Positions 49,769-50,417 of a stretch of DNA of 64,000 bases are shown piece after piece. Origin of the DNA: an uncultured Bdellovibrionales bacterium (GTDB lineage: Bacteria > Bdellovibrionota_C > UBA2361 > SZUA-149 > CAZDIO01); the NCBI GenBank assembly GCA_964505555.1, contig CAZDIO010000102.1, positions 13,355 to 77,354 of the forward strand, given 5' to 3'. Numbering within the stretch: the stretch's first letter is position 1; each line of letters opens with the position of its first letter. The notes under the pieces were generated by a model. It saw nothing but the letters and a program-made list of their open reading frames with translations, did not search any database and was not told the origin of the DNA. Both the position numbers and the translations under genes were made by a program.

Positions 49769-50071
49769 ATGTCAGATGTAGCCTCGGCGCTTTTTAATAT
49801 CGGAAGTGTTGTGCGTGAAACCGCAAGTTACTTACCAGAACCTGCAACGCAAGGCGTTAGTATGTTTTCTGACGTTATGGATATCGTAAAAAGCCTCACC
49901 GGTAATGGTGTTGGTGGAGTTCCTACCGAGATCGGCGGGGACTTTATGGAACTTCTTGAATTGCAGATTCAAACTCAGCTTGAGCTTCAGACGGTATCAA
50001 TGGTGTCAAACGTTGAGAAGTCTGAACACGAATCAAAGATGGCTGCGATTCGAAACGTTCGCGTAAACTAA
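49769..50071 (+). CDS. T3SS needle-family protein (SctF-like)
   Basis: 100 aa. The C-terminal tail LLELQIQTQLELQTVSMVSNVEKSEHESKMAAIRNVR aligns with the PrgI/MxiH tail (..LLAxYQ...SNTVKVFKDIDAAIIQNFR) at S, N, K, A, I, N and R. SD aaggag. Confidence 0.6.
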   Translation: MSDVASALFNIGSVVRETASYLPEPATQGVSMFSDVMDIVKSLTGNGVGGVPTEIGGDFMELLELQIQTQLELQTVSMVSNVEKSEHESKMAAIRNVRVN

Positions 50072-50099
50072 AACAAGAAAATTAGATTGGAGAAATACT

Positions 50100-50417
50100 A
50101 TGGCCGTATCAAGTGTAACCACCGCTGCACCTCAAACAGCCGAAGGAAAAGCAGCAAAGAGTGAAGGTGAAGATAAAAAGGAGCGCACCTCTCAGGTGAA
50201 CCAATGGGGAAAAGAGATCCTTGATTTAAAAACCTCAAATGCGCGTCTTCTTGAGATCGTTGAAGCAGCAACAAAAGAGGCAAATGATAGCCCCTGGGTG
50301 ATGAACATGATTGAAAAGTTCATCGGTCAACGGGCGGTAAAGGGTGCCGCTGTTTCAAACATGATTCAAGCAATCATGGAAACGATGAAACGAATCGCTA
50401 ATAATATTGGGCGTTAG
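50100..50417 (+). CDS. Second needle/inner-rod-family protein (SctI- or SctF-like paralogue)
   Basis: 105 aa, predicted helical. The tail AAVSNMIQAIMETMKRIANNIGR shows the same SN...I..N..R pattern. Its position after the needle gene mirrors prgI-prgJ. Confidence 0.45.
   Translation: MAVSSVTTAAPQTAEGKAAKSEGEDKKERTSQVNQWGKEILDLKTSNARLLEIVEAATKEANDSPWVMNMIEKFIGQRAVKGAAVSNMIQAIMETMKRIANNIGR

Follow-up and report, generated by a model that had tools for sequence, protein, structure and literature searches.

Canonical type III secretion system (T3SS) needle proteins are better conserved than the inner-rod proteins, and in the gene pairs prgI-prgJ and mxiH-mxiI the needle gene comes first and the rod gene second. 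In Ysc-type systems YscX is a secreted early substrate that is needed for the export of both rod and needle. In Shigella and Salmonella the adaptor SctI anchors to the basal body by its N-terminus (PMC10019453), and the T3SS* of Myxococcus xanthus, implicated in prey lysis, is reported to function without needle, secretin or translocon (PMC12075869). For the Bdellovibrionota, a full-text literature search returned no account of needle proteins or of any system resembling an injectisome. Here we analyze a stretch of 64,000 nucleotides (hereafter, the window; contig CAZDIO010000102.1 of assembly GCA_964505555.1) from an uncultured Bdellovibrionales bacterium, a member of the Bdellovibrionota, a phylum of bacterial predators. 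We focus on two tandem small genes, designated P1 (the first, 100 amino acids [aa]) and P2 (the second, 105 aa), which we regard as two subfamilies of the needle superfamily that had gone unrecognised; the T3SS-like module that encodes them is deep-branching and unusually compact.

Two tandem small genes upstream of sctV

The two genes under study lie on the same strand, immediately upstream of a gene for an SctV export-gate protein:

49769 to 50071, + strand: P1, 100 aa, ATG start; putative needle-superfamily protein, slowly evolving and found in all lineages
50100 to 50417, + strand: P2, 105 aa, ATG start; putative needle-type (SctF-like) protein, fast-evolving and clade-specific

Both open reading frames (ORFs) had been proposed in an earlier, sequence-only reading of this DNA, and the ORF listing of the window returned them at exactly these coordinates. 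P1 and P2 are preceded by Shine-Dalgarno sequences (AAGGAG at 8 nt and GGAG at 9 nt, respectively) and are spaced 28 nt apart, with sctV beginning 11 nt after the end of P2. We take them as genuine genes because their orthologues always occupy the same position. An exact-sequence look-up of P1 returned no record, and a scan of the module for promoter and terminator consensus sequences gave nothing above shuffled sequence. A sigma-28-type promoter candidate (TAAA-N18-CCGAT, 49657-49685, + strand) in the 95-nt gap before P1 was rejected, since 26 other loci show no such element before P1 and the window alone carries it; it is probably fortuitous.

P1 carries a YLPEP motif at residues 21-25, in which P-E-P is invariant, a variable Gly-rich loop at residues 44-57 (TGNGVGGVPTEIGG), which had been recognized beforehand as an insert, and a long polar C-terminal helix that terminates in SNVEKSEHESKMAAIRNVRVN. 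P2 presents a disordered N-terminus rich in Ser, Thr, Ala and Lys, an NDSP turn at residues 62-65 and a C-terminal helix terminating in SNMIQAIMETMKRIANNIGR. The two needle-type tails quoted in the sequence-only reading are both present, but that of P1 runs two residues beyond AAIRNVR (...RNVRVN). The seven identities that it counted between the tails of P1 and PrgI are correct (7/19); this number is reached in just 0.3% of P1 shuffles, and P1 alone attains it when all of the window's 299 open frames of 60 aa or more are compared. The ungapped P2 tail shares 5/19 residues with PrgI, which is chance level (45% of shuffles), and BLASTP produced no alignment between P1 and P2, P1 and PrgI, or P2 and PrgI. 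Single sequences thus suggest a resemblance to PrgI for P1 only, and resemblance to needles appears to be significant solely at the level of profiles. As that reading also remarked, both proteins are longer than the 70-90 aa of typical SctF needles, and the median length of 178 superfamily relatives is 101 aa. The N-terminal extension that it described is likewise real: the needle-core alignment begins at residue 62 of P2 versus residue 38 of PrgI, and residues 1-18 of P2 are predicted to be disordered.

Profile evidence for needle-superfamily membership

Profile comparisons were performed with four alignments: 19 members of the P2 family (A4), seven canonical needles (A5), the 142 best relatives of A4 without P1 (A7) and 37 members of the P1 family (A8). 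The seven needle sequences were checked as members of PF09392 (E-values of 1e-16 to 1e-29). The regions of P1 and P2 aligned in these comparisons are as follows:

49931 to 50068, + strand: needle-like C-terminal domain of P1, residues 55-100 (hhalign of A8 versus A7, 46 columns)
50283 to 50414, + strand: predicted needle core of P2, comprising the turn and C-terminal helix, residues 62-105 (hhalign of A4 versus A5)

The P2 family aligned to the canonical needles with an hhalign probability of 85.9% (E 5.3e-6), pairing P2 residues 62-104 with PrgI residues 38-80 in register from the turn (NDSP versus PSDP) to the last residue. A search with A4 over 1.84 billion representative proteins (hmmsearch) recovered 318 proteins at E<=1e-3, mostly of 64-150 aa and with the match ending at the C-terminus. 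Among the best 142 of these matches, 25 belonged to Pfam T3SS_needle_F (best 3e-11), and no other family was matched by more than two. The wider set derived from them, A7, aligned to the canonical needles at 95.5% (E 1.4e-8), and its hidden Markov model (HMM), run on five plasmid regions that carry a T3SS (945 ORFs; four regions annotated), yielded as its sole match the annotated Yersinia YscF, and not YscI; A4 gave no match in the same 945 ORFs.

The P1 family aligned to the P2 family (A4) at 89% and, as A8, to A7 at 96.8% (E 2.4e-10) over 46 columns, in register to the C-terminus. Its HMM matched 67 P2 or needle-like proteins (best 1.5e-12), and four proteins (P0106, P0149, P0060 and P0175) were matched by both the P1 HMM and the canonical-needle HMM. 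When run on the ORFs of the loci described below, the A7 HMM detected every P1, other than a truncated copy in locus L031 that was not in the ORF set, together with P2, and nothing else. With comparably small profiles, the accepted relationship between needle and rod scores just 68% in hhalign; since the scores obtained here exceed this calibration, we regard both proteins as belonging to the needle superfamily.

By these comparisons P2 appears as a member of the superfamily fairly directly and P1 transitively. Both are related to the injectisome needle protein but have diverged so far from it that standard family models overlook them: the curated models gave no match to P1 or P2, whereas remote homology was evident (85.9% for P2 and 95.5% for A7; 96.8% for P1, transitively). 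The broader claim that the two are mutually related needle-family proteins within a T3SS cluster is supported by the profile comparisons and by the flanking genes for SctJ, SctQ/FliN and SctV. We judge it likely that P1 and P2 are structural T3SS subunits of the needle superfamily.

The position of the two genes admits another explanation. Pairs of small genes also lie directly before sctV in clusters of the Ysc and rhizobial types, as in Yersinia (yscX and yscY), in Phyllobacterium and on a Klebsiella plasmid, and P1 and P2 could in principle be cytoplasmic chaperones or regulators in the YscX/YscY position, or helical-hairpin chaperones resembling CesA or YscE. A profile built from three P2 sequences did retrieve weak CesA/CesAB matches from the PDB (E 0.2-0.4), but these were gone with the 19-sequence profile, which gave 11 weak matches and, in their stead, three needle entries: PrgI, MxiH and the 43-residue chain of 7y6c, labelled as a needle co-chaperone. 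The corresponding PDB sequence and profile search with P1 returned one chance match only. Neither P1 nor P2 matched a YscX or YscY family in the Pfam or NCBIfam scans, and the homology that is significant, reaching the extreme C-terminus, is to the needle family, leaving a chaperone or regulator role very improbable.

Distribution, conservation and composition

A search with P1 identified 16 close relatives among 5.8 billion proteins, all without names, and a single-sequence search with P2 initially recovered P2 alone; every relative is annotated as hypothetical. Scanning one genome per species with the P1 alignment revealed 25 loci, of which 22 carry the titles Bdellovibrionota, Bdellovibrionales, Oligoflexia or 'Deltaproteobacteria', nearly all of them in metagenome-assembled genomes (MAGs), and tblastn of P1 against plasmids found no match. 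The gene order sigma-SctJ-...-SctQ-P1-[P2]-SctV-TPR is conserved in 27 non-redundant loci plus locus L038, metagenome contigs included, and the module is present in at least 28 lineages, nearly all Bdellovibrionota MAGs. P1 orthologues occur in all of the clustered non-redundant loci (27/27), and P2 orthologues in nine lineages (the window, L001, L003, L006, L007, L008, L015, L031 and L038).

A distance tree of SctV from 28 lineages resolves two clades, here termed A (n=9) and B (n=19); the tree is midpoint-rooted and does not decide between gain and loss of P2. In clade A, which includes the window, a gene of 92-113 aa is always found at the P2 position. In clade B, sctV directly follows P1, and no P2-like ORF was present in the ~20 kb around each locus.

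The two proteins differ markedly in conservation. Within clade A, sequence identity is 39-66% for P1, 41-55% for SctV and 12-25% for P2, and between clades it is 26-40% for P1 and 38-41% for SctV. By this measure P1 evolves about as slowly as SctV, and P2 very fast. No other small protein of the module is as well conserved as P1, in which P23, P25, F33, L62, Q66, N81, H87, E88, M91, R95 and N96 are invariant. They also differ in composition. The C-terminal helix of P1 (SNVEKSKHESKMAAIRNIRV) has a mean Kyte-Doolittle hydropathy of -0.95 +/- 0.15, versus +0.16 in needles, +0.32 in rods, +0.09 in P2 and +0.02 +/- 0.40 in the wider superfamily. The hydrophobic PrgI positions V65, V67, F68 and I71 are occupied in P1 by E, S, K/E and S, and the invariant H87-E88 fall at the positions of the PrgI pair K69-D70. 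P2 retains the canonical hydrophobic pattern and the Pro-containing turn, ends at or no more than two residues from the conserved Arg and has a variable N-terminus rich in Ser, Thr and Ala. Because the derived polar helix of P1 is common to both clades and P2 keeps the ancestral needle-like pattern, it seems more parsimonious to place the divergence of P1 from P2 before the separation of the clades, with P2 later lost from clade B or moved elsewhere in its genomes.

AlphaFold2 monomer models built with the family alignments place helices at residues 3-21, 30-43 and 53-99 of P1, the latter two parted by the Gly-rich loop, which lacks a PxxP and has a predicted local distance difference test score (pLDDT) below 50. 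In P2, residues 1-18 are modelled as disordered and helices span residues 19-41, 47-61 and 65-104, of which the last two flank the N-D-S-P segment that hhalign aligns to PSDP of PrgI, with a pLDDT of only ~75.

A needle-like C-terminal domain was also seen in longer proteins (170-370 aa) and in some short ones, whose genes sit in small operons with unknown neighbours, more than 10 kb from any T3SS gene (L037, 2363-3064; L039, 10001-10666, in a Polyangiaceae MAG of the Myxococcota; L034, 8-280). They may represent needle-like orphans or components of a system not yet described. For several other distant relatives the contigs were too short for the gene context to be informative.

Assignment of roles to P1 and P2

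On balance, we lean towards a reading in which P1 and P2 belong to the SctF superfamily and separated from each other anciently, with P1 proximal and P2 forming the needle; their genes lie between those for SctQ and SctV in an injectisome-like module of the Bdellovibrionota that is compact and branches deeply. For the order by itself, with P1 as proximal or adaptor subunit and P2 as distal needle, which is the opposite of that in the sequence-only reading, we regard the chances as even. This order is proposed because P1 occurs in all lineages and evolves slowly, and P2 occurs only in clade A and evolves fast; P2 would be the needle because the hydrophobicity of its tail is needle-like (+0.09 versus +0.16), the tail of P1 being an outlier. 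The conserved N-terminal motif of P1 fits an adaptor role, since SctI anchors through its N-terminus (PMC10019453), and on structural grounds a lineage is more plausibly left with an adaptor and no needle than with a needle and no adaptor.

Under this assignment, we infer that P1 and P2 would be early T3SS substrates, exported through the SctV-containing gate, whose C-terminal helices would assemble into a helical conduit above the export apparatus. P2 would be a conventional polymerising needle subunit in which a PxxP-like turn joins a first helix to a long C-terminal one that shows the canonical hydrophobic pattern, and the filament surface would be where its N-terminus, variable, disordered and rich in Ser/Thr, is exposed. 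P1 would be the proximal, indispensable subunit, serving either as a basal conduit or as a first layer of adaptor ('inner-rod-like') type, in which the invariant C-terminal helix (H87-E88) and the N-terminal PEP motif may contact an equally conserved basal body (export gate, rings), by analogy with the use that SctI makes of its hairpin and N-terminus in Shigella and Salmonella (PMC10019453). P2 would be dispensable in lineages able to work needle-free, as the Myxococcus T3SS* does (PMC12075869); those that lack P2 would either have no needle or carry its gene elsewhere.

The reverse assignment, with P1 as the needle (the major polymerising subunit) and P2 as the inner rod or adaptor, was the one put forward in the sequence-only reading from the order of prgI-prgJ, to which mxiH-mxiI conforms. 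The SPI-1 and Mxi-Spa systems do have needle and rod in that order, and P1 is far better conserved than P2, much as needles are relative to rods (69% identity between PrgI and MxiH versus 38-39% between PrgJ and MxiI), but it is P2, and not P1, that aligns in register to canonical needles, turn included. P2 further displays the needle traits of a predicted PxxP-type turn aligned to PSDP of PrgI, an end at the conserved Arg and normal helix hydrophobicity. Rods also score weakly on the Pfam needle model (PrgJ, 3.8e-5), which makes the needle-likeness of P2 compatible with a rod role; the A7 HMM, however, selects YscF and not YscI in the Yersinia cluster, and neither protein matches the rod family. 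Pfam T3SS_basalb_I (PF17001) had no match among 37 P1 and 19 P2 members at E<=1, and hhalign of P1 and P2 against rods (PrgJ, MxiI, YscI and HrpB, including the annotated YscI of pYVe8081 and an HrpB-type protein from a Pantoea plasmid) gave probabilities of 0.1-1.4%. For P1 as the needle there remain the 7/19 tail identities with PrgI, seen in 0.3% of shuffles, against which stand a polar C-terminal helix unlike that of any needle and 19 of the 28 lineages of the SctV tree in which P1 is found without P2, that is, a needle without its adaptor. Neither PF17001 nor the rod profiles support P2 as inner rod, P2 is the more canonical needle of the two, and we consider the reverse assignment unlikely.

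Both proteins might instead be filament subunits, forming a heteropolymeric needle or a needle of P1 extended distally by P2, in the manner of EspA on EscF, with the adaptor missing or encoded elsewhere. A needle-type C-terminal polymerisation helix is present in both P1 and P2, yet the polar helix of P1 speaks against ordinary packing in a needle wall. The very fast evolution of P2 and its low-complexity, Ser/Thr-rich N-terminus are as expected of an exposed surface, and a gene for a family 2 glycosyltransferase (GT2) co-occurs with P2; long filament proteins of the EspA kind, on the other hand, are about twice the size of P2. We judge this arrangement decidedly unlikely.

A bolder version of the P1-proximal, P2-distal arrangement would see in the module a minimal machine of T3SS type that branches deeply, is confined to no earlier description and belongs to predatory Bdellovibrionota; in it P1 would be a new needle-derived conduit, with a polar helix lined with His and Glu, that by itself forms the periplasmic channel on the export gate, and P2 an optional distal needle. 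Nature would then have produced 'needleless' injectisomes in the 19 P2-less lineages, and P2 could be glycosylated by the GT2. We regard this extension as quite unlikely.

Several observations weigh against the favored assignment of P1 as proximal subunit and P2 as needle within an injectisome-like module. In Pfam and NCBIfam scans P1 and P2 had no match of any kind (none to PF09392 at E<=1); the 37 P1 members produced no needle, rod or FliE match at E<=1, and the 19 P2 members only two weak needle matches (best E 0.053). Direct profile comparison of P1 with canonical needles or rods was not significant, and since P1 has no direct similarity to needles, its membership is transitive. Some of the long relatives sit in loci without T3SS genes, and the domain is therefore not strictly diagnostic of a T3SS. 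The conservation of needles and the prgI-prgJ order would favor P1 as the needle. The AlphaFold2 models are all-helical but of low confidence (pLDDT 64 for P1 and 67 for P2), and fold searches with them were uninformative, neither protein being recognized. Finally, no ATPase (sctN), SctRSTU, SctD or secretin (sctC) gene was found in the 64-kb window or in the examined flanks of other genomes (~10 kb; among them L001, L003, L031 and L038), so that a complete apparatus is at most presumed.

The surrounding module

P1 and P2 are embedded in a tight array of genes on the + strand, in the order sigma factor, SctJ, small ORF, split SctQ, P1, P2, SctV and TPR lipoprotein, followed by the glycosyltransferase gene. 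The other genes of this region are:

46483 to 47196, + strand: FliA/WhiG-like (sigma-28 type) sigma factor, first gene of the module; Pfam Sigma70_r2/r4, NCBIfam TIGR02479 FliA_WhiG 1.4e-23 (below cut-off)
47196 to 48131, + strand: SctJ-type inner-membrane ring lipoprotein; TIGR02544 III_secr_YscJ 1.4e-21 (below curated cut-off), Pfam YscJ_FliF 1.1e-7
48043 to 48408, + strand: X0, small conserved ORF after sctJ; no Pfam or NCBIfam family match
48410 to 49333, + strand: N-terminal part of the split SctQ, 307 aa; no Pfam match, conserved in clade A (L006, L007, L008 and L015)
49308 to 49673, + strand: SctQ C-terminal/FliN (SpoA) domain protein, 121 aa; Pfam FliMN_C 9.2e-6 (above cut-off), TIGR02551 SpaO_YscQ 2.1e-6
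50429 to 52507, + strand: SctV export-gate protein, 692 aa; Pfam FHIPEP 8e-164
52529 to 53146, + strand: TPR lipoprotein (PilW/PilF-like), conserved last gene of the module; Pfam TPR, best NCBIfam match PilW 1e-11
53330 to 54337, + strand: GT2 glycosyltransferase; Pfam Glycos_transf_2 2e-23

The sigma factor gene precedes sctJ in 23 loci. SctJ has an N-terminal signal with a Cys (FFQVSC), and a lipobox or Cys was found in its orthologues too. The true start of X0 is likely the ATG at 48133, giving a protein of ~91 aa, and homologues of 79-112 aa occupy the same position in L001, L006, L007, L008 and L015. The two SctQ ORFs overlap in different frames, and the split is kept in L006, L007, L008 and L015; SctQ is fused in L031/L032 (370 aa, with weak SepQ_C plus FliMN_C) and is a single protein of 275-344 aa in clade B.

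SctV scored 513 bits against the NCBIfam SctV model versus 475 bits against FlhA, both below the curated cut-offs; its best PDB match was YscV/LcrD (372 bits, versus 305 bits for FlhA), and it is ~35% identical to LcrD and FlhA alike. By these scores SctV seems about equally distant from injectisome SctV and flagellar FlhA. The near-equal scores, together with the FliA-like sigma factor, raise the question of whether the module derives from a flagellum-related machine in which P1 and P2 are FliE-like or rod-like proteins. Its ring protein, however, is an SctJ-type lipoprotein and not FliF, and FliE (PF02049), FlgB and FlgC went unmatched among 37 P1 and 19 P2 members. A P2 orthologue (P0037) did give a single, sub-threshold FliE match (E 0.005), to be set against the 25 relatives that match the needle model. 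We hold a flagellar derivation to be very improbable.

The TPR protein has a signal peptide and a lipobox (LSTGC); a signal peptide with a Cys was recognized by eye in 20 of 21 orthologues, nine of which conform to the strict lipobox pattern. Its best family match is PilW, the pilotin of the type IV pilus secretin. A role as a needle chaperone of the YscG/LcrH type was rejected for this conserved lipoprotein with a signal peptide; judging from these features, it more likely helps to assemble the outer membrane or a secretin than acts on needle subunits as a chaperone in the cytosol.

The GT2 gene directly follows the TPR gene solely in loci that carry P2 (L004, L006, L007, L031 and L038 besides the window) and is absent from clade B loci. 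Glycosylation of P2 by the linked GT2 is conceivable, the link between the two being speculative. Genes for polysaccharide synthesis are abundant across the window in general.

The gene that comes directly after the TPR gene in 16 loci of clade B is a basic ORF of 89-120 aa (for instance, L010 12731-13072), with the motif FW..E...L.G..F...E.A...V......TDP. A shorter ORF (70-97 aa) is found farther downstream in clade A, in the window (55836-56048, + strand), L006, L007 and L008; by eye it resembles the C-terminal half of the basic clade B ORF, and BLASTP clustering keeps the two groups apart.

The wider window

Among 20 further ORFs of the window checked for T3SS core genes, we found only polysaccharide-synthesis and housekeeping genes, and the window also holds a ParAB/replication-initiator-like region. 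Either the remaining T3SS genes are dispersed, as T3SS genes are in the Chlamydiae, or parts are shared with another system. A 525-aa protein and the ParA/ParB partition genes that it adjoins together occupy 36658-38235 (- strand) and 39131-40814 (+ strand); the protein had no match in the NCBIfam scan, and it could conceivably be a replication initiator or mark the origin region of a plasmid, chromid or chromosome. A Gly/Ser/Ala-rich protein of 451 aa with a glycine-zipper-like segment is encoded 1.1 kb upstream of the module (44021-45376, + strand); it has no family match, is not conserved beside the module in other loci and was considered as a possible substrate.

Implications and comparison with known systems

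The alignments obtained here define both subfamilies, with at least 37 members for P1 and more than 100 representative clusters for P2. Two needle paralogues represent a moderate extension of known biology and not a new principle. Since the tested Pfam and NCBIfam models miss P1 and P2, model-based annotation may label such systems 'needleless' or overlook them, and their occurrence in the Bdellovibrionota is of interest given that the Myxococcus T3SS* is implicated in prey lysis. The split into clades with and without P2, combined with an invariant and chemically odd P1, offers a tractable comparison for the minimal rod/needle conduit of the T3SS, and the minimal-machine interpretation, if true, would show in living lineages the condition that preceded or accompanied the separation of SctF and SctI.

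The closest described relatives of P1 and P2 are the SctF needles (MxiH/PrgI/YscF; PF09392), which are likewise small helical proteins encoded in a T3SS cluster. The likeness extends to an SctF-like motif at the extreme C-terminus ([ST]N-x3-K/R-x3-[DE]-x5-[IV][IV]-x-N-x-R), to the predicted Pro-containing turn of P2, which aligns to the PSDP turn of PrgI, and to the recovery of bona fide PF09392 proteins by the P2 profile and of the annotated YscF by A7. Unlike SctF, P1 and P2 fall below every curated threshold, measure 100-105 aa rather than 70-90 aa and are encoded as tandem paralogues. P2 has ~24 extra N-terminal residues, and in P1 a Gly-rich loop replaces the PxxP turn, the PEP motif is invariant, two residues follow the terminal Arg and the C-terminal helix is strongly polar.

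The inner rod SctI (PrgJ/MxiI/YscI; PF17001) is a distant paralogue of the needle (68% in hhalign) of ~100 aa, whose gene adjoins the needle gene in SPI-1 and Mxi-Spa. Its N-terminus anchors in the basal body (PMC10019453), the role that we propose for the conserved N-terminal motif of P1; for P1, an arrangement of six copies as a first helical turn on SctR/SctT is suggested by analogy alone. In contrast to SctI, P1 and P2 lack sequence or profile similarity to rods, and P1 is highly conserved whereas canonical rods are poorly so. Ysc-type clusters likewise present two genes of ~100-120 codons, yscX and yscY, immediately upstream of sctV, and differ from the module described here in that P1 and P2 match neither family and have needle-type C-termini, and in that P2 is absent from most lineages.

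The 'needleless' T3SS* of Myxococcus xanthus (mxan_2434-2464) is an injectisome-like system in a predatory former deltaproteobacterium and is likened to the module here by description only. Its cluster is large and includes a sorting platform and an ATPase, whereas the module comprises 7-10 genes, without ATPase or SctRSTU and with needle-family proteins. It nevertheless provides a precedent both for a system with no secretin gene near the module and for the P2-less organization of clade B.

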